Shown in pieces: positions 2,159-42,398 of a stretch of 55,236 nt of DNA. Each line of letters begins with the position of its first letter. The stretch's first letter is position 1. The DNA comes from a virus. Lineage: Duplodnaviria; Caudoviricetes. The stretch spans positions 1 through 55,236 of IMG/VR virus record IMGVR_UViG_3300014658_000002. One strand, given 5' to 3'. The notes beneath the pieces are model-generated. The model was not told where the DNA came from, ran no database searches, and was given only the letters and a program-made list of their open reading frames with translations. The translations under genes were made by a program, and so were the position numbers.

Positions 2159-2814
2159 CCAGCGCTAAAGTCTCCACTGCCGCCGCTAAACATGTCAGAA
2201 GAGACGCCGGCTGAAGTTCCCACACCGCGCAACCCTCCTCCTAACGCACCAGCAATACCGCCGCCGGCCATTGCCCCAGACGCCGCTCCAGCAGCCGTAG
2301 ACCCAATTCCACTGATAAGATCATTGAATTGCGCTAATCTCTGCTGCTGTTCAGTATTGTTCTGATTGAACACGTCGTTGTAGCCGCTCATGCTCTGCCC
2401 GAGAAGGTTGCTGCCGAGAGATGCACCCTGCCCGATAGCCCCCGAAGTCAGCGAGGAAATCATGTCGTTCACGCTCGACCGCGCCGTATCCATAGTGTTC
2501 TGATTTGAGGCGTTCGTGCCGCCAGACCGGGCTCCGAAGGTTGCATTTGTCTGCGTCTTCTCGTTGGCCTGCTTGGAAATCGCACCAATCTGCGGAGCGA
2601 GCAGTTTGGCAATATCTGACTGATTCCCGCTCAGTAGTCCGTTGATGAGCGCGGAAGAGTTCGAGAGCAGACCTTCACCCACCGAGCCAGAGAAGCCAGA
2701 CTCTCCCGTCAGCGCGTTGGTTGCTCCTGTCTCGCCGCCCGATGGACCCATATCTACGCCGAAGAATCCGTCTTCGTTGCGCCAAAGCTCGATAAGGAAT
2801 GCTTTCAGGTTCAT
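2146..2814 (-). CDS. Probable pilot/ejection protein, Gly/Ser/Ala-rich
   Basis: AGAAAGGGAA RBS; low-complexity G/S/A sequence with C-terminal glycine-zipper-like hydrophobic segment. Confidence 0.6.
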   Translation of the reverse strand: MNLKAFLIELWRNEDGFFGVDMGPSGGETGATNALTGESGFSGSVGEGLLSNSSALINGLLSGNQSDIAKLLAPQIGAISKQANEKTQTNATFGARSGGTNASNQNTMDTARSSVNDMISSLTSGAIGQGASLGSNLLGQSMSGYNDVFNQNNTEQQQRLAQFNDLISGIGSTAAGAASGAMAGGGIAGALGGGLRGVGTSAGVSSDMFSGGSGDFSAGWDQ

Positions 2815-2824
2815 GGTTCCCTTT

Positions 2825-20248: not shown

Positions 20249-20709
20249 TACAGTTTTCCTTTCAGTCCATCTTTCACGATCCGGGTATCGTCGCCGCCCT
20301 GCTCGTACATCTCAGCCGCCAGCTTCGGCACTGCCCGGATACGCTGACTCAGGATGCGTTCGTAGAGCTTGTCTTGGGCATCCAGCATCCGAATATTCAC
20401 GTCCCGGTTGAATGGGTCCAGATGGGCGTTTCTGGCGATTACAGAATCCCGTACCGACTTGCGGAAGTCCCGCTCCTTTTCCAGCTTCTTGACCGCCGCC
20501 CGTTCCTCGTCATCGATGTGCTGTTGACGATACTGGTCCATGAAGCGGTCTAGATCGCAAGCGTGGAGGCAGATGATTGTTTCGTAGCGGATTCCTTCGG
20601 GAACATTGAGTGGAGGAGCGCCCTCGATTCCAAAACTGAGGATTCTGGAGGTTCCAATTTCCCGGTAAACCACGGTTCTTTCGGTGCCGCACAATTGTAC
20701 GTTGCCCAT
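20248..20709 (-). CDS. Hypothetical protein, probably leaderless
   Basis: ATG 20709 lies 7 nt downstream of a -10 box; coupled to the RyR gene. Confidence 0.65.
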   Translation of the reverse strand: MGNVQLCGTERTVVYREIGTSRILSFGIEGAPPLNVPEGIRYETIICLHACDLDRFMDQYRQQHIDDEERAAVKKLEKERDFRKSVRDSVIARNAHLDPFNRDVNIRMLDAQDKLYERILSQRIRAVPKLAAEMYEQGGDDTRIVKDGLKGKL

Positions 20710-20716
20710 GAGACAC

Positions 20717-20745
20717 AATTTACACCGCTTGGACGCTAAGAGCAA
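20717..20745 (-). promoter_or_regulatory. Sigma70-like promoter
   Basis: TTGCTC-N17-TAAATT; a 14-bp palindrome copy lies just upstream (20762-20775). Confidence 0.5.
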
Positions 20746-20775
20746 TTGAGAATTTCTGGCAGTGCAAGATTGCAC

Positions 20776-20865
20776 CAAAACAAAAATGCCTCAACCGGGA
20801 GGAAGAGGCATTTTTGACCATCGACGAAAGGAACCACGTCTCAAGCTGCCAAGCCATGAGCGCAC
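20776..20865 (-). ncRNA. Putative small RNA 1 (~90 nt): 5' hairpin, CU-rich linker, terminator
   Basis: Own promoter upstream; 12-bp terminator stem 20781-20816 with T-tail; same architecture as sRNA 2. Confidence 0.6.
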
Positions 20866-20869
20866 TTGT

Positions 20870-20899
20870 AGTATACAAAACTTTGTGATAGGGTTGCAA
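20870..20899 (-). promoter_or_regulatory. Promoter of sRNA 1
   Basis: TTGCAA-N18-TATACT-ACAAGTGCG; same elements at the same spacing at 31720-31749. Confidence 0.7.
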
Positions 20900-20928
20900 T
20901 TGCCAAGTCACATGAGAGCAAAAATCAC

Positions 20929-21275
20929 GACAATTCGATTTTCGTTAAGGTTTGAGCCTTCATGCGCCTTGGCGTCCTGCACGAAAGGCAGGCGGGGCGG
21001 GAAGAGTGGTGCGCTCAGGGGAGCCTCGATAGCAGTCTGGACCAATCGCCTAAATCCTTAGGGATAAGCTGAGTGCGGCGGGTTCAGTCTGTTGGATGCC
21101 CGCTGTGGTGGTTAAGGCGTCAAACCAATCCCCGGCAAACACCCGCCCGCAGTGGAGACACTGCCCCTCGCCTGGCTCCGGTCACGCATGGGAAAAGGTG
21201 AACGGCGATAGCCCAAGCCTTGTGGCTCACCTGTACAACCGGGTTAACCACACCCTTCCCCCCACCTTCACCAGT
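20929..21275 (+). ncRNA. Putative structured non-coding region A
   Basis: No convincing ORF; GNRA-capped hairpins (GCAGTG-GAGA-CACTGC; CCTGC-AC-GAAA-G-GCAGG); first 44 nt are 35/44 identical to 31780-31823. Confidence 0.45.
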
Positions 21276-21301
21276 ACCGCATAGGATTAAGAACAAAGCA
21301 T

Positions 21302-23467
21302 TTAGTAGCTTGGAACAATCATTCCCTGAGTGCACCACGCATCGCCTAAAGCTTCTTTCACCTTCTTCGTTAATGGCCAACGAGACTGTATTCTAGCTGC
21401 GGAATTTTCTAGTTCGTGAAAAGTGGTCCAGCCCATGGCCGATGCAAAGATATTGTCGTCGTGTTGTCCTTGCATGTGGATCATCTCGGTTTTGCCTTCT
21501 CCTCCGATGTACTTTCGCACGAAGGTAGAAAGCTGCCGAATGACAATAGGATCATTCAGTACCAGCCAGCCGGTATTCACCGCATCCACCCAGCGGTCGA
21601 GAAGGTAAGGTCTGGTATAGGCTCTGGTCCACCATCCTTCCTGATGGCCTGAATCCTGCAAAACGTTTCCTTTCTTGTCGATGCGGATCATAATGTGATG
21701 ATCTAGAAAGCCCATGATCTTCAATTGGCTCTGACATTCATCTCCCGGTTTCCGCGTCTGTTCGATGATGAACTTCACAACCAAAGGATTCGCAGAGGTG
21801 ATGTTCCCGCTTCCGTCCGTTCCGTAGAGAACTGCTACTGCCGCCGCAATACGGCTCATCTGGGGTGAATTCACCCGGAGCGATGTGAGTGAGGCCACCT
21901 GAATATCGGGTCCAGTCCCGTGGCCGTGCTTATGAACCGAAAGAGTGGCCCTGTCCTCATTGGGCTTATTCAAACCTCCAGCCGTATCAATCGCAATGGC
22001 GTATTCCGCTCCGGGTTGAGGCTCCTCGAAAATGAGCAGTTTGTCGAAACACGCTTCATCGGTCGAATCGTCAAATGGCCGCAAAGGAACCAGATTCCAT
22101 CGGTACTCGTTGTCGTCCAGCCCCTTCCATTCGAGAATAATGTCTGGCTCGTTGGGGTTGACTGCCTCGCGGTTGGGCTCATAGGGAACGTTGTCGCTTC
22201 CCATCAGGATCGTTCTTCCGGTGACCGCATAGGCTGCATAGCTCTTTTCCCGCGCCTCGGTCACAAGGGTAATCGCCTCTTGCGTGAAAACTGGATCGTC
22301 TTTGGATTGGAAAGCATCGTTCGGCGTCACGGCATTGGCGGCAAGAAACTCGCGCTCCGCATGTTTTGCCACCGCCTCCTCATAACCGCACTGCCAGAAC
22401 CACTGAAACTCTTTCGGCATCTCCCAGCGCTGGCCCAGGACTTTCCAAAGATAATCCGTGGAACGAACAAACAACTCGCCACGGCGCCTCATCTTCCGCG
22501 TCGTGTCCGTGACGTGCTGTTCCCAAGGTTCAGGAAGGGGATGCTGGCGTAACCACGCCTCGGGCGGATAAAGGTCAGTCGCACAGGCCGGGGGAATGAA
22601 AAAGGCTTTGAACCTTCCCTTTCCGGAGGAGTAGAGTTCCCAGCTTTCCTTCTGCCAAGTCGTCGCCATCGACCCGGTACCCTCAAGAACCATGAACAAA
22701 GACGGTAACTGGTGGCAGGCAGGAAATAGACCTTCATCAAGGGTGTGTTTGGGGTTCGTATAGTCGCCAAGCTCGCTGATATGGAGGCAGGATGGAGAGT
22801 CGCCCTGTCCAATGCCGACTTCCTGCGCACCGGCCTGCACGGAGAGTCGAGAGCCATTCGTCCACTTCGGCTCGTTGATCTTGGTGGAGATTTGCGGGAC
22901 GCGCAGCCAGAACGGAAGCTTATCCTGGCAGGTGTCTATCATGTTTTTCAGTTTCTTCGATTGCTCAACCTGCACGGACGCCACAATTGCATAGGTGTTG
23001 GCGACGTAGAGAATGCGTTGGACGAAGAACAATGCTGTGACGGTGGACACACCTAATTGTCGGGCCTTGAGGATGAAAAGCTGGATAGCAATCTGGAGAT
23101 CGTCGCACTCGGCAAGAAAGGCGAGAAAGATTCTCTGCGCAAGACGGAAGTCGAAATGAACGATTTGCGTGTTGGCTGCGCGGATGTAGGCGTAACGGGT
23201 AACAAAATATTCTGCCGAGGCAAAGCAAAGGAATCGTTCGTTGGCTACCCAGCGCTTGATTTTCTTGACAGTTGCCGGGGATGGAGATTTGCCGTCTTTC
23301 CAGAAGAAGTAGGACCGTGCGCCAGTTTTCGACTTGGACACGTCGGCGTACTTGTTGATTTCCTCCACCATGAAGTCGCACTCGGCAACCGTATGGAAGC
23401 GCGGATCCCAGCCGTTTTTGCGGGCGAATCCGTCTATGGTTTCCTGGATAATCCGTTCGCTATACAT
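21302..23467 (-). CDS. terL: Terminase large subunit
   Basis: Walker A LKARQLGVST, Walker B LHISE, VLEGT coupling motif, nuclease IAIDTAGG and HDD motifs. Confidence 0.92.
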   Translation of the reverse strand: MYSERIIQETIDGFARKNGWDPRFHTVAECDFMVEEINKYADVSKSKTGARSYFFWKDGKSPSPATVKKIKRWVANERFLCFASAEYFVTRYAYIRAANTQIVHFDFRLAQRIFLAFLAECDDLQIAIQLFILKARQLGVSTVTALFFVQRILYVANTYAIVASVQVEQSKKLKNMIDTCQDKLPFWLRVPQISTKINEPKWTNGSRLSVQAGAQEVGIGQGDSPSCLHISELGDYTNPKHTLDEGLFPACHQLPSLFMVLEGTGSMATTWQKESWELYSSGKGRFKAFFIPPACATDLYPPEAWLRQHPLPEPWEQHVTDTTRKMRRRGELFVRSTDYLWKVLGQRWEMPKEFQWFWQCGYEEAVAKHAEREFLAANAVTPNDAFQSKDDPVFTQEAITLVTEAREKSYAAYAVTGRTILMGSDNVPYEPNREAVNPNEPDIILEWKGLDDNEYRWNLVPLRPFDDSTDEACFDKLLIFEEPQPGAEYAIAIDTAGGLNKPNEDRATLSVHKHGHGTGPDIQVASLTSLRVNSPQMSRIAAAVAVLYGTDGSGNITSANPLVVKFIIEQTRKPGDECQSQLKIMGFLDHHIMIRIDKKGNVLQDSGHQEGWWTRAYTRPYLLDRWVDAVNTGWLVLNDPIVIRQLSTFVRKYIGGEGKTEMIHMQGQHDDNIFASAMGWTTFHELENSAARIQSRWPLTKKVKEALGDAWCTQGMIVPSY

Positions 23468-24367: not shown

Positions 24368-24727
24368 TCATACTTCGGCCTCAGCTTGCAACGCCGGGTC
24401 CATCGGCTCATCATCTTCCCACTTGAATTGATTGAGGGGGAAGTGAGCGTGGCAGTTCACGCACATCGTTCCCGAATAGAAGTGGGGGTCGCGTGCGTAG
24501 GTTTCAGACAGCGCCAGCCCCATCGTCGTTACCGATCCGCACGTCAGGTGCCTGTAAGAGCGTCGAACAGGTTTTACGAATCCCTTGGCTCGTTCCTGAG
24601 GGCAGAGAACCACATAATCCTTCTGCATTCCTGTGGCTGGATCAATCTCGCGATGTTCGGGAGTTTCAGGGTTTCCGCTCAACATGCATCGCTTGGAGCG
24701 GTCAACTTCAGGGACTTCTGGCATCAC
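24368..24727 (-). CDS. Phage Zn-binding hypothetical protein
   Basis: HLTC...CVNC metal ligands; GFVKPVRRSYRH...ETYARDP segments. Confidence 0.7.
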   Translation of the reverse strand: MMPEVPEVDRSKRCMLSGNPETPEHREIDPATGMQKDYVVLCPQERAKGFVKPVRRSYRHLTCGSVTTMGLALSETYARDPHFYSGTMCVNCHAHFPLNQFKWEDDEPMDPALQAEAEV

Positions 24728-25236
24728 GCCTCCTTAACTCGGGTGAGAGTTAGAACCTTGTCATCGTCAGAGAGCGCCATCGCCAGTGTTCCCTTCTGAG
24801 CGAGCCGGAGCATATCCGACACTGCGATAGTCAGCAACCCACCGGCATCGTCGATCAGTTTGGCGACAGCAGCATTTACAAAAATCCTGCACTCTTCTTC
24901 GGACCACAACCGACGTGAATGGTTCACGAAGTTGGTTTTCAGGTCTCCGCGCTCTACGGCAGCATCCGCAGCTCTAGACATGAGCAGGTTTGCTAGATTT
25001 CTAGCCTGCTCGACAGAGAAGACGATATGTCCGACACCGTTCTCGTCGGGCTCCAAGTCGGGGTGATTCACAACGACTTTACCTTTTCCGTTCGTCCCTA
25101 TTTCTAGAGTATTCATGGCAATTTCGGTCATACATCCCTCCGTTTCCCCGATGATCTTCTTTCTCAACTCTGTTATTTTCTGCTCATAATCTTCCATTGA
25201 ACCAGGAAGATAAGTTGGTTTTTGCTTTCCTGTCAC
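24724..25236 (-). CDS. Hypothetical protein
   Basis: ORF overlapping neighbours at start/stop. Confidence 0.6.
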   Translation of the reverse strand: MTGKQKPTYLPGSMEDYEQKITELRKKIIGETEGCMTEIAMNTLEIGTNGKGKVVVNHPDLEPDENGVGHIVFSVEQARNLANLLMSRAADAAVERGDLKTNFVNHSRRLWSEEECRIFVNAAVAKLIDDAGGLLTIAVSDMLRLAQKGTLAMALSDDDKVLTLTRVKEA

Positions 25237-27917: not shown

Positions 27918-28286
27918 AAGTGAATAATACTCTTATTTGCCCAATAATCAAGTGGAAAATTCGCTTTTCGGGTGAATAATTCTCTTTCTGACCAAAATCC
28001 ATGAATCCATGTTTGGGCTCAGGAACGTTCCATGCCATCACGCCGCCCTGTCCTGGACAACCTCTCGCCACATCCTTCATGCGCCACATGGACAAATTCA
28101 CGACAACCCACGGCAGGCAAAGCACTTAGGCGCGCCAGTGAGGGCTGCCGCAGGCATGGAACGCGGCGAGGCATCGGGGAACGGAGCAAGAAGCAAAAAA
28201 TGGAAGATGAGAGGGAAAACGTTTCTGATTACACCCCATTGCTCCCTATTGCGGAAAGATGCGGTAATATTGGCGCAGGAGGATCA

Positions 28287-28466
28287 ATGAACCAGCTTAT
28301 GGAGGAGTGGGTAACCCCGAAAGACGCTGCCGCATACTTGGGGATCAGTGTGAAGACTGTGAGGGGTTGGTGTGTGTCTGGAAGGCTTATATCACGCAAG
28401 CTTGGATACAGGACGATACGGATTGCTACGGTGAGTATCGAGAAGATGTTAGAGAGAAAAGACTGA
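28287..28466 (+). CDS. Excisionase/MerR-like HTH_17 DNA-binding protein
   Basis: AGGAGG RBS; WVTPKDAAAYLGISVKTVRGWCVSGRL...TIRI. Confidence 0.85.
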   Translation: MNQLMEEWVTPKDAAAYLGISVKTVRGWCVSGRLISRKLGYRTIRIATVSIEKMLERKD

Positions 28467-28478
28467 ATTACCCACCGC

Positions 28479-28505
28479 TTAGCACTCAATGAGCATGATT
28501 GCTAA
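28479..28505. promoter_or_regulatory. CIRCE-like element (HrcA operator)
   Basis: TTAGCACTC-N9-GATTGCTAA versus consensus TTAGCACTC-N9-GAGTGCTAA (1 mismatch). Confidence 0.65.
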
Positions 28506-28558
28506 TAATTGCAATTCGTTGCAATTTATTGCTTGATATTGCAATACATTGTGATAAT
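28498..28558 (+). repeat. Six direct repeats at exact 10-bp period overlapping the early promoter
   Basis: ATTGCTA, ATTGCAA, GTTGCAA, ATTGCTT, ATTGCAA, ATTGTGA at 28498, 28508, 28518, 28528, 28538, 28548; extended -10 TGtGATAAT at 28550-28558. Confidence 0.8.
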
Positions 28559-28779
28559 CTGGTCACGTTGATGAGTTGAGGGCACGCCCCAGGTTGCCAT
28601 CCATGAGATGGGTACGCAAGGCCAATACGGATCAATGATCAGCACATATCGGATGCGTTTTCGCTGTAGTTCACCGCGAGAACACATCAGAGGCAATCAG
28701 CCATGACAATCATCTACAACTGCAAAGCCTGCAAGCGTGGACACCGCGTAGAGATACATCAGATGAGGAGGAAAAGAAC

Positions 28780-28974
28780 ATGACCATGAATCAAGTGAGC
28801 AAGTTGGCTTTGAATATCGCCCGCAAATACAAAGACGCTGAGTCGGTTCGCCGTGGGGACATTATCCGCGATGTGGTGCGCACCAACAAGCTGAACATGG
28901 AAGAGTCGCTCATTCTTGCCGACTGCATTGTCAAGGGCATGTACGCGGCTGGAAAGACAGTGGTGATCGCATGA
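28780..28974 (+). CDS. Early hypothetical protein
   Basis: GAGGAGG RBS. Confidence 0.7.
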   Translation: MTMNQVSKLALNIARKYKDAESVRRGDIIRDVVRTNKLNMEESLILADCIVKGMYAAGKTVVIA

Positions 28975-29345
28975 ACGGACTGGAAACGATCAATTGGATT
29001 GATACCGACTATGAAGACCCGCCAGTGGGTGAAACTGTTCTTGTGTTCGGTGGCCTTGCGTTCATCAACGCACAAGGCGTTTGGTATACAGAAATGGAGC
29101 ATCCTCCTCGCCCTATTATGTGGCGCGTTACTCACTGGGCAGTTCGTCCAGACCCGCCGCAATACCTGATAGATCAGACAGAAGAACAGCGCAAGTTGCG
29201 AGATATGGTCAAGTCTATCCATCAACCATTTAACGGGTTCACGCGCCCTACTGGGTGCCGTTGCCATGCCGATGGAACCATGAACATTGAGTGCCCTGTT
29301 CACCGCAATGGAATTGTTGCATCAATTGGAATTATGGGGTTATAG
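28971..29345 (+). CDS. DUF551-like early protein
   Basis: WID...PPVGETVLV...VTHW pattern. Confidence 0.6.
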   Translation: MNGLETINWIDTDYEDPPVGETVLVFGGLAFINAQGVWYTEMEHPPRPIMWRVTHWAVRPDPPQYLIDQTEEQRKLRDMVKSIHQPFNGFTRPTGCRCHADGTMNIECPVHRNGIVASIGIMGL

Positions 29346-29354
29346 GAGAACGCA

Positions 29355-29663
29355 ATGACTATTTGTCCTGATTGTGGTACGCGACAGCATTACGTATGTA
29401 ACCCAAAGCGGAAAAATCCAGACTTTAGCTATCGCATTGACGGCATGTTCGCGCTCATCCTGCCCGAGTCGCCCGCTGGCGAGAAAGCAATGCCTGAGTT
29501 GATGGCAATGACGGATGGGACCGCGAAAGTGTTCGCCACGCAGCTACAGGCGCTCAAGGCCGATCTACACCGCGCTGGATACACCATTCGCAAGCGGTCG
29601 ACACGTAAGACGTGCAGCAAGGCTGATATTGAGCATCTTTTTGGGCAACTTCAGGCCAATTAA
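29355..29663 (+). CDS. Early hypothetical protein
   Basis: AGGAG RBS; CPDC at the N-terminus. Confidence 0.65.
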   Translation: MTICPDCGTRQHYVCNPKRKNPDFSYRIDGMFALILPESPAGEKAMPELMAMTDGTAKVFATQLQALKADLHRAGYTIRKRSTRKTCSKADIEHLFGQLQAN

Positions 29664-29699
29664 CCGGTTTAGTGCAATATCGCACATTTTGGAGGATTT

Positions 29700-29825
29700 A
29701 TGTCCATTTCAACCGCGAAAGCGAAGCTCTACAAGACAGCTTGGATCATCGCCTCACACCGCGCAGCTTGCGTCTGGGCAGTCCTACGCTCCAAACAGAT
29801 GAACGGAAAGCAGGTAGCAGCATGA
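29700..29825 (+). CDS. 41-aa peptide not in ORF track (MSISTAKAKLYKTAWIIASH...)
   Basis: GGAGG RBS right after a palindrome copy; ATGA overlap with next gene. Confidence 0.55.
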   Translation: MSISTAKAKLYKTAWIIASHRAACVWAVLRSKQMNGKQVAA

Positions 29826-30175
29826 CCAACGAATACATCGACATGATGAAGGCGCAAGGCTGGAAGGTGTACTATCGCCCCGCTAAAGGCACGTTCAAGG
29901 GCGAATACTGCTACGTGACCGATGGAACCAACATTGCCTACGCGCAATGGAGCGATGGCCGGCCATCCGTCAGCACCGTCCACATGCCAAACAGACAGAC
30001 CGGCACCGGCTTTCAATTCGCCGACCGCATCACCGCTGAAACGGTCAGCAAGGCTATGTCCACCCTGGCTCCGTCATGGGCGCGTCAGGCGGATGTGTCC
30101 AGCGTCCACAAGTACAAGAATTGGGAAGCCTTCCACAAAGCCAACAGCTTCAACTCGGAACTGGTCGAAGCTTAG
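29822..30175 (+). CDS. Early hypothetical protein
   Basis: Start MTNEY coupled to the upstream peptide. Confidence 0.7.
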   Translation: MTNEYIDMMKAQGWKVYYRPAKGTFKGEYCYVTDGTNIAYAQWSDGRPSVSTVHMPNRQTGTGFQFADRITAETVSKAMSTLAPSWARQADVSSVHKYKNWEAFHKANSFNSELVEA

Positions 30176-30248
30176 TGCAATATCGCACCTGTCTAACCAG
30201 GAAACCTCGGTAGCAGCTTAACCGCAGTACCCACCCAGAAAGGGAATC

Positions 30249-30725
30249 ATGGAACTCACCACCACATTAAATCTGCTACACAAAGCCCATGCCTGTGCGC
30301 CACGATACAAAGTTCTGCTCACAGCGCTGGGAACTAACTATCCACCAGACAGACCCATCAATCTGCTTACTATTCTCAACCTCAATGGCTTGGATGATGC
30401 GCTGTGGGCTCTATGCGCAACTGCCGAGAATTGCGATAAAGTAGCGCGCCTAATGGCCGCAGATTTTGCCGGCCAAGTTTTGCCCATTTGGCAGCAATAC
30501 TCAGACGATAAACGCCCCGCATCGGCAATCAAAGCCGCACGAGACTTTGCCAATGGGCTTATCACGGCTGCTGCGAGGGATGCTGCGGGGGCTGCTGCGG
30601 GGGCTGCTGCGAGGGATGCTGCGGGGGCTGCTGCGAGGGCTGCTGCGGGGGCTGCTGCGGGGGGTGCTGCGAGGGACAAACAGAAAGAAATCTTTATAGC
30701 ATATCTCCAGCCCGAGGTAATCTAA
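30249..30725 (+). CDS. Phage protein with Ala-rich tetrapeptide repeats (Imm5-like helical region)
   Basis: AGAAAGGGAA RBS; NGLDDALWAL...AADFA.QVLPIW...DKRP..AI.AARDFA.G followed by AARD/AAGA repeats. Confidence 0.75.
   Translation: MELTTTLNLLHKAHACAPRYKVLLTALGTNYPPDRPINLLTILNLNGLDDALWALCATAENCDKVARLMAADFAGQVLPIWQQYSDDKRPASAIKAARDFANGLITAAARDAAGAAAGAAARDAAGAAARAAAGAAAGGAARDKQKEIFIAYLQPEVI
30566..30673 (+). repeat. Nine 12-bp tandem repeats GG(C/A/G)TGCTGCG(A/G)G
   Basis: Read directly; encodes the Ala-rich repeats. Confidence 0.9.
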
Positions 30726-30925
30726 TGGCACAAAAACAACAGCTTGATGCCGACCACGAGTACTTTACCGTAAAGCAAACGGCAGCGTACTTGCAAGTGT
30801 CCGAACGCACCATCCATACTTACATCAAAACCGGCCGGCTGGAATACTCGCAGCCTGTACGTCGGGGTGCAATCCGCATCAGCAAGACGGCAATCGACAA
30901 TCTCATGGAAGGCAAGAAGCCGTGA
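30725..30925 (+). CDS. Second excisionase-like HTH_17 protein
   Basis: YFTVKQTAAYLQVSERTIHTYIKTGRL...AIRISKTAI. Confidence 0.85.
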   Translation: MAQKQQLDADHEYFTVKQTAAYLQVSERTIHTYIKTGRLEYSQPVRRGAIRISKTAIDNLMEGKKP

Positions 30926-30964
30926 TTTGGTGCAATCTTGCACCGAAGAAAAGGGGAAAACCAG

Positions 30965-31297
30965 ATGCCCACGTTGTATAGTCGTATTCCCATCGAAATC
31001 ATCGACCGCCTGGCGCAGGAAGCGCAAGACAAGGCCGATGCAGAGCGCGCCACCTATGGCCGACTGGATTGCGTGGCCGACCACCTGGCGCATGAGGCCA
31101 GCGAGTACCGCCGGGCCGTGGATATGCAAATCGCAGATGACCTGGACATGCAGATGGGCGGAATGGCTTTGGTGGATGAAACCGCACCGGCTACTCCGTC
31201 TGACCCGCCACGTTGCTTCCGCGGACTAGCACTTACGGCTCTTTTCTCGCTGCCGGTATGTGCAATCGTTGCATGGCTCATTTGGAGGGCGCTATGA
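30965..31297 (+). CDS. Hypothetical protein with C-terminal membrane anchor
   Basis: AGGGG RBS; hydrophobic C-terminus. Confidence 0.65.
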   Translation: MPTLYSRIPIEIIDRLAQEAQDKADAERATYGRLDCVADHLAHEASEYRRAVDMQIADDLDMQMGGMALVDETAPATPSDPPRCFRGLALTALFSLPVCAIVAWLIWRAL

Positions 31298-31497
31298 CCC
31301 GCCAGCAAGCGGCGTGGCACCACCGCCCGTACGATGTGGATGCGGAAGACTCCTTTTATGACCATGAGAGCGTGAAAGAGTACCCGTTTACCAACATTCT
31401 CGGCAATACTCAAAACGTGAGTCACCGTCGGATAGATAACACAACCATTTTTTGTGCCATCACGCTCATTCTTTGGGTGTTGGCAATGATCTTCTGA
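31294..31497 (+). CDS. Small protein with C-terminal membrane anchor
   Basis: ATGA overlap (MTRQQAAW...); hydrophobic C-terminus. Confidence 0.5.
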   Translation: MTRQQAAWHHRPYDVDAEDSFYDHESVKEYPFTNILGNTQNVSHRRIDNTTIFCAITLILWVLAMIF

Positions 31498-31590
31498 TCT
31501 CTCCACAACCCACCCAAGCTGACGGCATGGAAAACCATGCTGAGCTATCGGGTGCTCGTCCACTAATCCACGCAGTCGATGTTCCCTCCC

Positions 31591-31715
31591 AAAAACCAAG
31601 AGGCCCAACCGTAAGGAAGGGCCTCTAAGCCGGAAGAGAAAGGGAAACGGTGCGGGGCTCCATCAAGTGTTGTTCAGGCAAAAGATGGACGAGGTTTGGG
31701 ACCAGAACCCCGCAC
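31591..31715 (-). ncRNA. Putative small RNA 2 (~120 nt): 5' hairpin, anti-RBS linker, terminator
   Basis: 5' stem GTGCGGGG/CCCCGCAC; linker CGTTTCCCTTTCT; terminator stem 31599-31626 with T-rich tail. Confidence 0.65.
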
Positions 31716-31719
31716 TTGA

Positions 31720-31749
31720 AGTATAACCGTTCTTCATGCTAGGATGCAA
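31720..31749 (-). promoter_or_regulatory. Promoter of sRNA 2
   Basis: TTGCAT-N18-TATACT-TCAAGTGCG, homologous to 20870-20899. Confidence 0.7.
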
Positions 31750-31779
31750 TTGTTCAGGTAAAAGATTGCGACAATCTCT

Positions 31780-32170
31780 GACAATTCGGTTCTCGTCAAG
31801 GTTCCCGCTTTCGTGCGCCTGGGCCACGTCTCTGCATGGCATTGCATCCCGGAGAGGGCACAACGTGTACAGGATGAGAGCGGCTGTCCAGTGTCTAATA
31901 AACAATCACCAGAGTTTGAGCCGAGCAAATGCAGCCCCGGTGTCGATGATGGCCTTGTCGCCGCGCCGCCAGGGTCACGGGGATCGGCAAATCAGCAGGT
32001 AAGGGTTCCCCTACTGAGAGGCGGGGCTTTCCGGGTTCAGGTGACCACTTCCTTCCCGGTCCGTTATGAGACGTACCAAGAACCCATAGAACTGCGCTGG
32101 TTGGCTCCGATGATTAACTCCACCAGATGCAGGGACTACAGGTCTCTACGGGGAAAGTGGGAAGTGTATC
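31780..32170 (+). ncRNA. Putative non-coding region B / long leader of gene 32184
   Basis: No convincing ORF; starts with the 44-nt block shared with 20929-20972. Confidence 0.4.
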
Positions 32171-32183
32171 TGAAAGGGAAACG

Positions 32184-32441
32184 ATGAGCGACTTACTTGA
32201 CATGGATTACATCAACAGTCTTCCTCAGCCGATCTACGGGCGCATGTTGGGTGATAAAAACAATTGGTGGCCCGTGATTGATTTCGAGGTCGGAACCGGC
32301 TTGATGCATATCGACGTGTGCGGTAAATCACAGCTAACACATGTGCGCGAGTTTGCCTCGTTTATGGATATCTGCGAACGGAAATATCAATCAGATGCTT
32401 TATATTCGGACGCCACACAAGAGGATCGTGTTTGTATCTAA
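32184..32441 (+). CDS. Hypothetical protein
   Basis: GAAAGGGAAACG RBS before MSDLLDMDYINSLPQP. Confidence 0.7.
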   Translation: MSDLLDMDYINSLPQPIYGRMLGDKNNWWPVIDFEVGTGLMHIDVCGKSQLTHVREFASFMDICERKYQSDALYSDATQEDRVCI

Positions 32442-32465
32442 GAAGCAAAGACAGAGAGGAGAAAA

Positions 32466-32939
32466 ATGAAGATTTACGTTGCAAGTAGCTGGCGGAATGA
32501 TTACCAACCGGGGGCGGTGAGACGGTTGCGCGAGTTGGGGCATGAGGTATATGACTTTCGCGGCTGTGATACCGGATGGGGAAGCGCAACAGATAGAGTT
32601 GGAATCCCCGGAGGATTCTCTTGGTCGAACGTAGATCCCGATTGGAAGAGTTGGTCCAATGACGTTCCGCGCTATCTTCGCGGACTTGAACATCCACGTG
32701 CCATTGAAGGCTACAACCGAGACATGAACGCTCTCAAAAGGGCTGACGCCTGTATCCTCGTGAATCCCTGCGGTCAATCGGCACACGCCGAGCTTGGGTG
32801 GGCTGCTGGAGCCGGTAAGCTCACCGCTGCTTGGTGTCCAGAGATTCGAGAACCCGATTTAATGCTCAAGATGGCAGGACACATAACCGACCGCTGGGAA
32901 TCCATCGAGCTATGGTTAAGGGTTCCACTCGATTTGTAA
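32466..32939 (+). CDS. Nucleoside 2-deoxyribosyltransferase-like protein
   Basis: KIYVASS...D..AL..ADACILV.PCG.SAH.ELGWA.G.GK matches the NDT-superfamily pattern. Confidence 0.75.
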   Translation: MKIYVASSWRNDYQPGAVRRLRELGHEVYDFRGCDTGWGSATDRVGIPGGFSWSNVDPDWKSWSNDVPRYLRGLEHPRAIEGYNRDMNALKRADACILVNPCGQSAHAELGWAAGAGKLTAAWCPEIREPDLMLKMAGHITDRWESIELWLRVPLDL

Positions 32940-33021
32940 ATCGGTGCAATCTTTCACTAAATAACCACACATGCAGGGAATGTCAACGTTGGCACTAAGG
33001 TGTATGAAGAGAAAGGGTGAA

Positions 33022-33318
33022 ATGCCTGACGTAATAATCATCGACCGATGGAAGATCGTTTACGACTGCGTGAAGGAGCGTGGCTCATACAGCACTGGAA
33101 AAGGGTTGTACAACGACAATCACGTTAAGAAGCTGATCGAGGAAGTTAGCCGACTAGAAGCGGGTTTGATAGCTGCGGCAATGTCGCTCGAAACAATCCA
33201 CGAGCAGGCGGGGCGGGATGAATTCCTGATCCATATGCTTCAGGTGCGCGGCTATGCCAACAGCCGGGCGACAGTAGCTCGTGCGGCTTTGACAGACACC
33301 AGAAAGGAAGAACGATGA
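33022..33318 (+). CDS. Hypothetical protein
   Basis: AAAGGG RBS before MPDVIII. Confidence 0.55.
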   Translation: MPDVIIIDRWKIVYDCVKERGSYSTGKGLYNDNHVKKLIEEVSRLEAGLIAAAMSLETIHEQAGRDEFLIHMLQVRGYANSRATVARAALTDTRKEER

Positions 33319-33531
33319 AGCCTGAGTTGATTTTCCGGAGGGCAAATGAGGACAGTTTCAAGTATTGCTTCGGAATTAACCTCGCCTTTGGCAAGGCTGG
33401 TCTAATCTTCGAGGTAATGTTTTTGTTTTGGGGTTTCCAAGTCAACTGGCTGAAAGCGAACTTCTATTGCGAGTAGGCTTCCGGTGTGTGTTGGAGGATG
33501 AAATAAAAAGTGGAATAATTTGTGCTCGATT

Positions 33532-33858
33532 TTACAATTTATTCAACAGAATCTCCAGAATGTCGTTGATGGCTTCCCCGGAGGTCGCCATCTCAGTCGT
33601 GTACGCTAGCGGTCTGTATCCCGCTTTAACCGCAGAGTTCTGCTTGGCGCAGTCTCTAGCCTGCCCAACCCCCCGTGAATGTCCTCCGCGAGTCCAGGTG
33701 CCTCCCTGTATCTCTATGGCGAGGTCCTTTACGACAAAATCCCATCGCCATTTCCGGCCGGAGACTAAATAAACTTCACGCTCGAATGGAATGCCGTGGG
33801 CTCGGAGATGCAAAGCGAGTGTTTCCTCGCCGACGCTGCCAGCTTTAGGAATTAGCAT
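33532..33858 (-). CDS. PD-(D/E)xK endonuclease (DUF559/Vsr-like; possible resolvase)
   Basis: FERE...RKWRWDF....LAIEIQGG.W..G.H.R..G...D..K.N.A...GY. Confidence 0.8.
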   Translation of the reverse strand: MLIPKAGSVGEETLALHLRAHGIPFEREVYLVSGRKWRWDFVVKDLAIEIQGGTWTRGGHSRGVGQARDCAKQNSAVKAGYRPLAYTTEMATSGEAINDILEILLNKL

Positions 33859-34012
33859 CTTTCCTCTTTCGGATCGCATTGCGGCTGGTGACCGCTCTAA
33901 AGCCGTCCTCGAATTCAATCAGACACGAGTTCATGGTTCCACGAAAAATGACCCGGAAGAACTGACCTTTCCGCCCCATCCGGTTCCATGCGTAGAAATA
34001 TGGGTATTCCAT
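33845..34012 (-). CDS. Small hypothetical protein
   Basis: MEYPYFYAWNRMGRKGQ...; AGGGG RBS. Confidence 0.55.
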   Translation of the reverse strand: MEYPYFYAWNRMGRKGQFFRVIFRGTMNSCLIEFEDGFRAVTSRNAIRKRKDANS

Positions 34013-34371
34013 CAGAACCCCTTCACAACCAAAATCGGCCGGTCTGGTCGCAGCATCTTGATTCCCTGCCCGTGATCGCTGATAAGATGACAGCGCCAGC
34101 ACTGCCAGGTCAGCCATTGGCCGTCAGGTCCGTCTTCCGTCTCTCTCCAGCCGAATCTAGCCTTAGCTCTCCCATGCGCCAGATGGCCTCTGTGCCACAG
34201 ATCGCCGTCAAGTGGTAGGATAGCCTGTCCTGAGCACTCGGAGTGTATCTGGGATTCGCAGATGCCGTGAGCGCGATCTCTGGCAGCGATGCGAGTCTGT
34301 TCTTTCTCGGCTTTGCTGGGCTCACCTTTGCGCAGGGTCTTGCGGATGGGATTCAGTCTAGTTCTCTTCAT
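34012..34371 (-). CDS. HNH-like/Zn-binding protein
   Basis: MKRTRL start; RD..GICE...C...HLAH...CWRCH. Confidence 0.6.
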   Translation of the reverse strand: MKRTRLNPIRKTLRKGEPSKAEKEQTRIAARDRAHGICESQIHSECSGQAILPLDGDLWHRGHLAHGRAKARFGWRETEDGPDGQWLTWQCWRCHLISDHGQGIKMLRPDRPILVVKGF

Positions 34372-35008
34372 CGTGCTCCTGATTGAAATCTATAGCATAG
34401 GCCAGCAACTGGCCGGCTCGGTCTTCAATATCCAACTTTTTCCCAATCCACGAAAGAAACTGATCTACTTCTGCGTATTCACTCGCAGAATAGGTCAACC
34501 TGAGCGTCCTTCGTCCCTCCAAGGCTTGTCCATGCTCCTTGGTGAGCTTGGCTGCAAACTGCTCTTCAGAAAGCGTCTGTGCAGCCTCCAGCACGTCTGG
34601 AAGGGATCTGACGGAACTGCTGACCTTGGTTAACGTGAGGATATTGCATCTCGGCACATCTACCAGCTTCTCCATCGGCACATCGGGGAGTTTGTTCACG
34701 GTCGCCAGCGCCTCTTGGTTGTAGCGCCAGGACTTCGGAAACATGACCTTGTTAAATCGGTCCAGCGACCGGAAGGGCTTGCCGACTTCCTCATCCTCAA
34801 AGAACTGGTATATTTTCTTCTCCTCGGCGATCTTCATGGCAGCACCGCGGAGCGCGTAGACCTGCCGCGTCATGGACTCAATACGCTCGTCTGCTGCCTC
34901 TACGGTACGAAGAATGTCCAAGACTGGTTTAGCGGCCTGCTCTGAGGTCATGGCGCGGATGGCATCGAAGTTTGGCGCGGGGAGTTGATGCAAGATTGCA
35001 CTAGCCAT
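34358..35008 (-). CDS. Hypothetical helical protein
   Basis: GGAG RBS; coupled ORF; palindrome copy in its first codons. Confidence 0.7.
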   Translation of the reverse strand: MASAILHQLPAPNFDAIRAMTSEQAAKPVLDILRTVEAADERIESMTRQVYALRGAAMKIAEEKKIYQFFEDEEVGKPFRSLDRFNKVMFPKSWRYNQEALATVNKLPDVPMEKLVDVPRCNILTLTKVSSSVRSLPDVLEAAQTLSEEQFAAKLTKEHGQALEGRRTLRLTYSASEYAEVDQFLSWIGKKLDIEDRAGQLLAYAIDFNQEHDEEN

Positions 35009-41975: not shown

Positions 41976-42323
41976 CTAGAACTCGCCGAGCGCCGCTTCT
42001 TCTTCCAAAGAAAGAATTGGCGTGCATTCGTAACGCGCCGGTCGCGCCGGTTCTACCAGCGTGCAAATCTTCGACTTCTTGATAGCCGCATAGACTCCAA
42101 GCGCTTCACTTTCATGGGTGAGCGTGTACTCATCGTGCTCGTAACCGTCGCCCTTTTTGATCGGGCGCGGGAACACCTTGGCGAGAGACAGGAAACTCTC
42201 TTTTGTTCCTTGGTACGAGTGAAAAAAAGAAAGATTCGGCTTGACGATTTTGACGTCTGGGGTTTTGTCGAGCAAATCGGCGATCCTGCGAAGTTCTGCT
42301 GCTACTGCTGCGGTGGTGGTCAT
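41976..42323 (-). CDS. Hypothetical protein, first gene of the recombination/replication operon
   Basis: AGAGAGGGAAACG RBS before MTTTAAVAAELRRIADLL. Confidence 0.7.
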   Translation of the reverse strand: MTTTAAVAAELRRIADLLDKTPDVKIVKPNLSFFHSYQGTKESFLSLAKVFPRPIKKGDGYEHDEYTLTHESEALGVYAAIKKSKICTLVEPARPARYECTPILSLEEEAALGEF

Positions 42324-42398
42324 ATCGTTTCCCTCTCTTTTATGGAAGGTACGCCAATCTTCGTATAATTGCAACAACTATTTTAAAATATTTTCTGC

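Follow-up and report, generated by a model that had tools for sequence, protein, structure and literature searches.

A predicted small RNA of an uncultured wetland phage whose variable loop may recognise the 5' end of a divergent transcript

The virus record IMGVR_UViG_3300014658_000002 of IMG/VR is a complete phage genome of 55,236 bp with direct terminal repeats, and this whole stretch of DNA is referred to below as the window. At positions 31,591 to 31,715 its minus strand is predicted to encode a small RNA (sRNA), here sRNA 2, and an unpaired linker of this RNA had been proposed to be antisense to the ribosome-binding sites (RBSs) of several phage genes. An anti-RBS match in a single genome needs to be compared with relatives, and the comparison made here shifts the conserved function elsewhere on the RNA. 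With a probability of about 0.5, the conserved job of sRNA 2 would be the pairing of its apical loop with the 5' end of a divergently transcribed plus-strand RNA. The covarying repeat shared by the loop and this 5' end is the strongest signal of the family, and the RBS matching of the linker, judged from the related sequences, is a phage-specific extra and not a family property. The entire analysis was carried out in silico, and both RNAs are known here as predictions from sequence.

Read from 31715 to 31591, the minus strand comprises a stem-loop closed by GUGCGGGG and CCCCGCAC, the linker, a GC hairpin and UUGGUUUUU (the coordinates of all features are given in Table 1). The linker reads CGUUUCCCUUUCU(CUUCCGGCUUA), and the whole CU-rich single strand is CGUUUCCCUUUCUCUUCCGGCUUA. 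The predicted fold of sRNA 2 has a minimum free energy of -54 kcal/mol (z = -3.88), and none of 200 shuffled sequences folds as well. The U-run of the terminator is found on the minus strand only; an automated terminator scan took loops of 3-8 nucleotides (nt) and therefore missed this terminator, the loop of which has 12 nt. Two promoter-like sites stand back to back; in the window their -10 hexamers (31720-31725 and 31740-31745) are 15 bp apart, and the geometry of the rightward one places the plus-strand start at approximately 31750-31753. It is plausible that the minus strand encodes a discrete sRNA whose CU-rich linker is unpaired; promoter, stem-loop and terminator recur in relatives. 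The predicted sRNA looks real and would belong to a family present in related uncultured phages. No match at the gathering score of Rfam was obtained in the whole window, and only chance-level hits (E 0.45-9.5) were seen in 31300-32400 and 20600-21450; the cassette that carries the loop and the 5' end belongs to no Rfam family.

The relatives were reached through the RNA-library contigs described below. A 30-nt loose end of one such contig, at which it diverges from the window, was searched in metagenome contigs and yielded five loci, all of which match both 31650-31824 and 20861-21304 of the window. A signature pattern built on an invariant 45-nt block then retrieved eight more loci from IMG/VR, together with the same phage in a contig of a metagenome-assembled genome (MAG). 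In total, 15 module copies representing 10 sequence variants (V1-V10) were collected from wetland viral and metagenome contigs: two in the window, five in metagenomes and eight in IMG/VR. Six of the IMG/VR copies are in L050-L055 and three in L058-L060, one of these on the same record type. Other routes gave less: searches with the flanking proteins returned 43 loci, mosaic and sharing single genes, none of which had the intergenic sequence, and an exact 21-mer of the linker/stem junction had 0 matches in IMG/VR. Within the window, the second copy (module 1, encoding sRNA 1) is a paralogous minus-strand module of the same phage. It is located between terL and the next minus-strand genes, and the copy encoding sRNA 2 (module 2) has no same-strand gene for 3.6 kb.

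Comparison of the variants delineates a family with covariation, promoter- and terminator-like elements at conserved positions, and complementarities. The conserved block reads CCCAGGCGCACGnnnGCGGGAAyCTTGACn6CGAATTGTC family-wide. A minus-sense -10 hexamer with at least four of six matches lies 4-7 nt before NGCGGGG in all 10 variants, at exactly 5 nt in eight of them, and a minus-sense -35 with 3-5 of 6 matches was found in nine. The Y-shaped 5' stem-loop, SL1, is kept across variants. Its closing stem is invariant except for one pair (U-A in four cases, U-G in three and C-G in two), and no two variants share the sequence of the apical stem, the strands of which are nevertheless complementary throughout. 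Under a strict rule, a GC hairpin with a U-run follows SL1 in six of the 10 variants. In the opposite orientation, a plus-sense promoter-like site is present in 10/10 variants before U', the plus-strand complement of the upstream repeat copy, with its -10 ending 4-7 nt before U'. The extended TG is found in nine of these promoters; V6 is without it and has a perfect TTGACA-17-TATTCT.

Each variant has its own direct repeat of 9-17 nt, lineage-specific in sequence, with one copy in the apical loop of SL1 and the other just upstream of the sRNA promoter. The upstream copy shares on average 11.0 identical positions with SL1 of its own variant and 6.6 in the 90 non-cognate combinations. Out of 500 shuffles per variant, none reached the observed repeat match in V1, V2, V3, V7 and V10, one did in V9, seven in V5 and 15 in V8. 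Since the upstream copy is preceded by a plus-sense promoter in 10/10 variants, the plus RNA would start with U', and the SL1 loop could pair with it. The predicted duplexes between SL1 and the 5' end of the cognate plus RNA range from -21.8 to -32.6 kcal/mol (mean -28.3; 10 variants), compared with a mean of -14.8 kcal/mol (standard deviation 3.1, best -22.1) for non-cognate pairs. The cognate duplex is the best in 10/10 rows and 10/10 columns, and pairing begins at nt 1-3 of the predicted plus RNA. In module 2 the cognate duplex (-27.6 kcal/mol) takes in the predicted 5' region from its nt 1 onwards. Modules 1 and 2 have cognate energies of -25.4 and -27.6 kcal/mol and cross energies of -11.4 and -11.3 kcal/mol, from which no cross-pairing between them is expected. 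The two copies of the repeat differ at eight single mismatches, six of which have A upstream and G in the sRNA and two T and G. Such A/G mismatches become G-U wobbles in the proposed duplex and A-C mismatches in the opposite strand assignment. Duplexes of the whole-length sRNA with the leader, as well as a strand-swap test (6/10), were dominated by long interior loops. A P4/P1-like seqA/B/C layout was considered as well and rejected: no same-strand copy complementary to the repeat was found.

The cassette in which the repeat pair resides is hypervariable. Over the 440 nt upstream of it, V2, V3 and V4 have 97-100% identity, compared with 30-68% over the cassette itself, which is approximately 200 nt long and spans the repeat, the promoters, the interior of SL1, the linker and the terminator. 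Downstream of the cassette V3 and V4 are again 93-100% identical, and over 3177 nt the two are 95.5% identical.

The linker had been the basis of the original prediction, and part of that prediction stands. Folding leaves the linker unpaired, as had been stated, and all four claimed complementarities, to the RBSs of genes 32184, 42323, 30249 and 2814, are present in the sequence. The chance level was assessed on 80 crude translation initiation regions (TIRs), for which open reading frames (ORFs) were tiled by strand block and the start was picked by Shine-Dalgarno (SD) pairing. Among these 80 TIRs the duplex energies of the linker are -20.7 kcal/mol for 42323 and -19.9 for 32184, followed by -15.6 for 25236, -14.7 for 30249 and -14.2 for 2814. 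Two TIRs at -19 or below were obtained with 0/300 shuffled linkers and with 0/80 control seeds, each designed as antisense to the RBS of one gene; 1% of shuffles and 2/80 control seeds reached seven TIRs at -14 or below. Genome-wide, on both strands, there are 66 linker sites at -13 or below. The top three are its own antisense, 42325-42339 and 32171-32184, well ahead of the next site at -16.5. Genome-wide, the two best non-self sites of the linker are therefore the RBSs of 32184 and 42323, and these are beyond chance. The matches to 30249 and 2814 are what any anti-RBS sequence gets in this phage, because phage RBSs are often GAAAGGGAA-like. The original prediction itself carried the caveat that short matches to a common motif are partly expected, and the notion of several targets is not supported.

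In the relatives the linker is the least conserved part of the family, with unrelated sequences, lengths of 9-30 nt and a CU content of 0.31-0.83, which speaks against the linker as the functional core. Tested against the TIRs of its own genome, it beats 95% of shuffles in 2/5 units: the fraction of shuffles reaching the best energy is 0.010 for V1 and a borderline 0.035 for sRNA 1, 3.5% of the shuffled sRNA 1 linkers matching its best TIR (gene 2814) as well. In the complete genomes G001-G003 the fractions are 0.675 (V5), 0.745 (V9) and 0.90 (V10), i.e., no better than shuffles. When only the first gene on the divergent RNA is considered, V1 alone (0.013) of eight variants falls below 5%, V2 having 0.053 and the other six 0.09-0.96. 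The RBS-complementary element is thus neither kept nor covarying with its target in relatives. The sRNA had also been described as cis-antisense to the early plus-strand transcript; this is not established, as a conserved plus-sense promoter is predicted to start the 32184 transcript at approximately 31752, outside sRNA 2. What is supported of the proposed multi-target repressor is a plausible sRNA with two RBS matches, and neither several targets nor family-wide RBS targeting. The covarying pair of loop and 5' end, the divergent plus-sense promoter and the paralogy of sRNA 1 and sRNA 2 were no part of the original prediction.

Table 1. Features of the sRNA 2 locus, of its paralogue and of the RBSs complementary to the linker.
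Feature	Positions	Strand	Remarks
sRNA 2 (predicted, ~123 nt)	31592..31714	-	From start at ~31713-31715 to end of U-run; promoter/terminator geometry kept in relatives
SL1	31650..31715	-	Closing stem GUGCGGGG/CCCCGCAC, small left hairpin, apical hairpin P3 UCCAUC/GAUGGA; loop carries the repeat
sRNA copy of lineage-specific repeat (AUCUUUUGCCUGAACAA)	31670..31686	-	In SL1 apical loop; mean unpaired probability 0.67
CU-rich linker	31626..31649	-	Core CGUUUCCCUUUCU (13 nt) at 31637-31649; mean unpaired probability 0.98 for core, 0.80 for all 24 nt
Intrinsic terminator	31591..31625	-	Hairpin GAGGCCC-12 nt-GGGCCUC (31600-31625) and U-run (31591-31599)
sRNA 2 promoter	31720..31749	-	-35 TTGCAT (31744-31749), 18-nt spacer, -10 TATACT (31720-31725), 5 nt before UGCGGGG
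Plus-sense promoter (predicted)	31716..31745	+	-35 TTGAAG (31716-31721), 18-nt spacer, TG (31737-31738), -10 TAGGAT (31740-31745)
U' (UUGUUCAGGUAAAAGAU)	31750..31766	+	Plus-strand complement of upstream repeat copy; predicted 5' end of divergent RNA and predicted target of SL1 loop
Invariant 45-nt block	31780..31824	-	Upstream of sRNA promoter, near 5' end of plus RNA; signature for collecting the family
RBS GAAAGGGAAACG and ATG of gene 32184-32441	32172..32186	+	12-nt perfect linker match; first gene on predicted divergent plus RNA
RBS AGAGAGGGAAACG, AU, AUG of gene 41976-42323	42321..42339	-	13-nt linker match with one G-U
RBS AGAAAGGGAA of gene 30249	30239..30251	+	10-nt linker match, generic level, -14.7 kcal/mol
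RBS AGAAAGGGAA of gene 2814	2812..2824	-	Generic for sRNA 2 linker (-14.2 kcal/mol); top TIR for sRNA 1 linker (-27.1 kcal/mol)
Module 1	20777..20975	-	Block 20929-20975, upstream repeat copy 20901-20916, promoter TTGCAA-18-TATACT 20870-20899
sRNA 1 (module 1)	~20865 to 20777	-	Two-way terminator

The reading in which the linker is the functional seed and sRNA 2 occludes the RBSs of all four genes as a multi-target repressor appears improbable. Besides the unpaired (0.98) and CU-rich (0.83) state of the linker, it is favoured by the fact that the two best non-self sites are the RBSs of operon-heading genes, matched at a level found with no shuffled linker and no control seed, and by CU-rich stretches that follow SL1 in V6, V7, V8 and partly in V2 and V5. 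It leaves both the covarying repeat and the hypervariable cassette unexplained, two of its four targets are generic, the sequence and length of the linker are not conserved, and neither the G001-G003 linkers nor the first-gene test (below 5% in 1/8) gives it support. The repeat copies could instead be operators for a lineage-specific DNA-binding protein, for example an HTH_17/excisionase-like one, the RNA then being a terminated leader without pairing function, as is the lambda 6S RNA before tR'. In P2-type operators repeats flank promoters, and so do the direct repeats here. HTH_17-like genes are indeed found nearby, at 28032-28466 and 30725-30925, as well as beside the V2 cassette (own translation); the position of module 1 between terL and the next minus-strand genes would suit a leader, and in V9 and V10, which are without a terminator, transcription may read into genes. 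Nevertheless, we find this explanation unlikely. It does not predict that a compensated apical stem displays the second copy in an RNA loop, that a plus-sense -10 lies 4-7 nt before U', or that the mismatches run from A to G. Moreover, the V3 and V4 cassettes differ within 3.2 kb that are otherwise 95.5% identical, so that no covarying protein gene is close by.

Two further explanations have very little probability in our view. According to one of them, AGAGAAAGGGAAACG followed by GTG 31650 would be the RBS and start of a small protein gene on the plus strand, and the sRNA a wrong-strand artefact. The same 12-mer does precede both GTG 31650 and ATG 32184, an NTG occurs at the plus-strand base of SL1 in 7/7 checked variants with the closing stem, and an SD-like stretch, read by eye, is located before it in about 5/7. 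The frames, however, have 8, 8, 19, 23, 30, 44 and 65 amino acids (aa) and are alike only where the stem encodes the first residues, the ORFs of the window have no family match, and the U-run and the fixed -10 are on the minus strand. The small ORF at 31650 was rejected on its unconserved frame lengths and sequences. The intergenic ORFs 31813-32187 (+), 31736-32002 (+), 31734-31928 (-) and 31663-31905 (-) gave no family match either. The other explanation, that the stem-loops and matches have no function and arose where recombination joined the pieces of a mosaic intergenic region, can point to the high mosaicism of the relatives and to RNAs that are predicted only. It is hard to reconcile with element positions kept in 10 variants, cognate-only pairing in 10/10 and compensatory changes in the stem.

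Several observations weigh against the pairing of the SL1 loop with the divergent 5' end as the conserved job of sRNA 2. The terminators are weak in V3 and V7 and unrecognisable in V9 and V10, so SL1 may lead a longer RNA in some phages. SL1 is more stable in the plus sense in 8/10 variants (mean -27.2 vs. -25.0), and structure alone therefore cannot fix the strand. The repeat signal is modest in V4 (24/500 shuffles) and weak in V6, where the ungapped match is reached by 85/500 shuffles and a 2-nt gap is needed. In the window genome U' is only marginally the best non-self site of the loop, with -24.0 vs. -23.8 for the next one, which means that the case rests on covariation. The promoters were scored against the E. 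coli sigma70 consensus, and the host may follow other rules; a strict consensus promoter scan of 30500-33000 found none, the -35 of module 2 being too weak, and for module 1 the automated scan found, within 1 kb, no promoter-like site other than TTGCAA-18-TATACT. As to RNA data, there are only low-depth contigs from RNA libraries that may contain DNA. Finally, the reading accounts neither for the invariant 45-nt block nor for the long leaders, nor for what the plus RNA does.

The RNA-library contigs in question (X7-X9) come from wetlands and cover parts of the plus-strand island at a depth of 2-4 (29500-34500), which indicates that the phage, or carried-over DNA, was present in those libraries. 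An X7 contig spans 31427-31589 and another contig 32022-32238. No RNA-library contig covers 31590-31772, a gap that carries no evidential weight. Two contigs, of X8 and X9, which represent other cassette variants, match the window from 31773/31778 to 31824 and then diverge, approximately 20 nt from the predicted plus-strand start. An assembly break at the hypervariable repeat explains these contig ends equally well.

If loop-to-5'-end pairing is the conserved job, the module would work as follows. Two sigma70-like promoters placed back to back would form one RNA module, of which the phage has two paralogous copies. The leftward promoter would produce a terminated sRNA of about 120 nt, and the rightward one an RNA with a long leader, about 430 nt before gene 32184 in the window and 330-450 nt in relatives; the plus RNA of the window would consist of this leader, gene 32184 and the genes after it. 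Recognition would take place when the apical loop of the sRNA pairs with the first 14-22 nt of the divergent RNA. Because the pair is located in the hypervariable cassette, it could provide a lineage-specific address, as do the loops of antisense-RNA immunity and incompatibility systems. In the window phage only, the linker could also pair with the SD region of 32184, a second contact on the same mRNA, and a two-site order with the address loop first and RBS occlusion next is plausible. Linker pairing with the 5'-proximal RBS of 42323 would likewise block ribosome binding. The overlap of the promoters suggests that their firing may be mutually exclusive. We infer that both RNAs would be made and would pair, and that the plus RNA would be repressed by occlusion, duplex cleavage or promoter competition; the direction of the regulation, the involvement of a nuclease and the role of the module, be it timing, immunity between related phages or another one, are inferred in the same way.

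More tentatively, these wetland phages might possess an RNA-only switch, in which the loop reads the first ~17 nt of the neighbouring transcript, the cassette diversifies like a heteroimmunity region and two orthogonal copies are possible in one phage. If this is true, the cassettes would be a natural library of mutually orthogonal pairs of sRNA and 5' end, and the switch would be an RNA counterpart of repressor-operator immunity. If the pairing model itself is right, the object of interest would be a recurring, hypervariable cassette for RNA-RNA recognition rather than a single sRNA with RBS matches, and at least 10 pairs from nature would be available for which the predicted duplex energies indicate orthogonality. 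Diversifying selection would then act on the sRNA loop together with the 5' end of the neighbouring transcript, as an RNA analogue of heteroimmunity, and two large 'empty' intergenic regions of the phage would be explained.

The phage itself is distant from cultured ones. BLAST of 31300-32300 and 20750-21310 gave no DNA match to the window among 50,697 cultured phage records, and its helicase is at most 35% identical to that of any cultured phage. The same phage was also found, 100% identical over two 8-kb stretches, in a 55,137-bp contig (L056, L057) of a Candidatus Saccharibacteria MAG; this placement may reflect coverage binning and is a weak host hint at most. Most genes are carried by the minus strand, including terL (21302-23467) and those for tail proteins, Erf, helicase, primase and endolysin. 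A plus-strand gene island extends over approximately 28032-34100. The sRNA 2 locus falls within it, in the 686 bp that separate the plus-strand gene ending at 31497 from the one starting at 32184. The product of gene 32184-32441 (+) has 85 aa, no family match and, on inspection of the translation, no long hydrophobic stretch. Gene 41976-42323 (-) is the first before the Erf, helicase and primase genes, and a possible promoter, TTGCAA-17-TACCTT, is seen upstream of it, in which case its RBS would be 5'-proximal on its mRNA. The protein atlas gave no function for the products of genes 32184 or 42323. For a Q- or N-like antiterminator, which a leader of the lambda PR'-6S-tR' type would require, the analysis extended to the PHROG scans only.

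Additional observations concern the surroundings of the modules. Inside the predicted leader, 31813-32187 (+) is a 124-aa open frame whose end overlaps ATG 32184 in the sequence ATGA; no family match was obtained for it, and its composition does not look protein-like by eye. The product of 30249-30725 (+) has an Imm5-like immunity-protein domain (PF21805, E 4e-7), and in many relatives from IMG/VR the gene lies at the end of a contig. At 25131 and 25236 (-) there are two near-identical 20-nt stretches of RBS and start, 105 nt apart, in or before gene 24724-25236. Next to module 1, a block of about 440 nt at 20930-21304 is apparently non-coding and 84-90% identical to L045-L049, the neighbouring genes being about 70% identical. 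The block belongs to the plus-sense RNA predicted for module 1, a transcript that has no ORF and extends into the 3' end of terL. It had no Rfam match and might represent either a structured leader or a non-coding RNA. About 10-60 nt past the terminators (L046-L049, L053) there is a second conserved element, G-rich and resembling GGGAGTGGAGCGGGGTGGGTGGTGCGGGG, in V2, V3 and V4 and in a looser form in V6. In L054 (V7) a homologue of gene 42323 is on the predicted divergent plus RNA, at +937 from the cassette (compared by eye), and in L059 (V10) the cassette is upstream of helicase/primase genes on the same strand, which ties the module to replication and recombination genes in relatives.

The literature searched, supplements aside, yielded reviews and known systems only and no description of such a cassette. 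Its components have precedents among antisense RNAs. P22 sar is a short terminated phage antisense RNA that affects a regulatory gene. Lambda OOP and aQ are likewise short terminated phage antisense RNAs affecting regulatory genes (PMC12197685). Unlike the module described here, sar, OOP and aQ overlap their targets in cis, and none of them is known to have a covarying second site outside the overlap. The c4 RNA arises by processing of the transcript that also contains its target, and its site of action is around the RBS of ant/icd. In P1 and P7 it is a phage antisense RNA with loop-displayed pairing and RBS occlusion, small sequence differences of which lead to heteroimmunity (PMC12197685). 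Similarly to c4, the pairing predicted here is displayed in a loop and lineage-specific, and a c4-type complementarity to RBSs is found for 32184 and 42323. In contrast to c4, sRNA and target would come from divergent transcripts, it is the 5' end that provides the conserved contact, and the RBS contact is seen in the window phage only. Neither the one-transcript layout of c4 nor the antisense overlap of sar is seen, as the predicted plus start at ~31752 is outside the sRNA (31714 to 31592).

Pairing between a loop and a 5' end is best known from IS10, in which the loop of a stable hairpin in RNA-OUT nucleates pairing with the 5' end of its target mRNA, RNA-IN. In IS10 the promoters point towards each other, with an overlap of ~36 nt between the two RNAs and a duplex that extends over the RBS. 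Loop-to-5'-end pairing is predicted here in 10 variants, with 5' ends that are themselves predicted; unlike in IS10, the promoters stand back to back, no overlap of the RNAs is predicted, and about 420 nt separate the RBS from the predicted 5' end. In ColE1 RNA I/RNA II and other plasmid copy-control RNAs, which overlap fully, the loops set the specificity and vary between compatible replicons. The module shares with the ColE1 type a short structured sRNA that would act on a long structured RNA, and differs from it in RNAs that are not predicted to overlap, without a shown origin or primer function.

The closest layout is that of the divergent type I loci zorO-orzO, tisB-istR-1 and shoB-ohsC, where the sRNA and its target are divergent and do not overlap and the 5' untranslated region (UTR) of the target is long. 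In zorO-orzO, a type I toxin-antitoxin system, the divergent sRNA pairs over 18-19 nt in a long 5' UTR (PMC3919570), and duplicated type I loci are kept apart by few specificity nucleotides or a short variable region (PMC3919570; PMC5397157). Both features have counterparts here: back-to-back promoters are predicted in 10/10 variants with cognate duplexes from nt 1-3, and, as in orthogonal paralogues of the zor-orz type, the cognate energies of modules 1 and 2 are far below the cross energies. The proposed contact differs from that of type I loci in joining an sRNA loop to the extreme 5' end of the target, the back-to-back promoters overlap, and the setting is a phage. In addition, known type I toxins are small and hydrophobic (~30 aa), whereas the first genes on the plus RNAs encode 47-132 aa and are unrelated between variants. 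A type I toxin-antitoxin system was therefore rejected: there is no toxin-like ORF, the first plausible genes being those of 47-132 aa, and the product of 32184 is not hydrophobic. Set beside all these systems, the predicted unit is better described as one half of a variant of antisense-RNA control, to which RBS pairing would be added as an extra in this particular phage.

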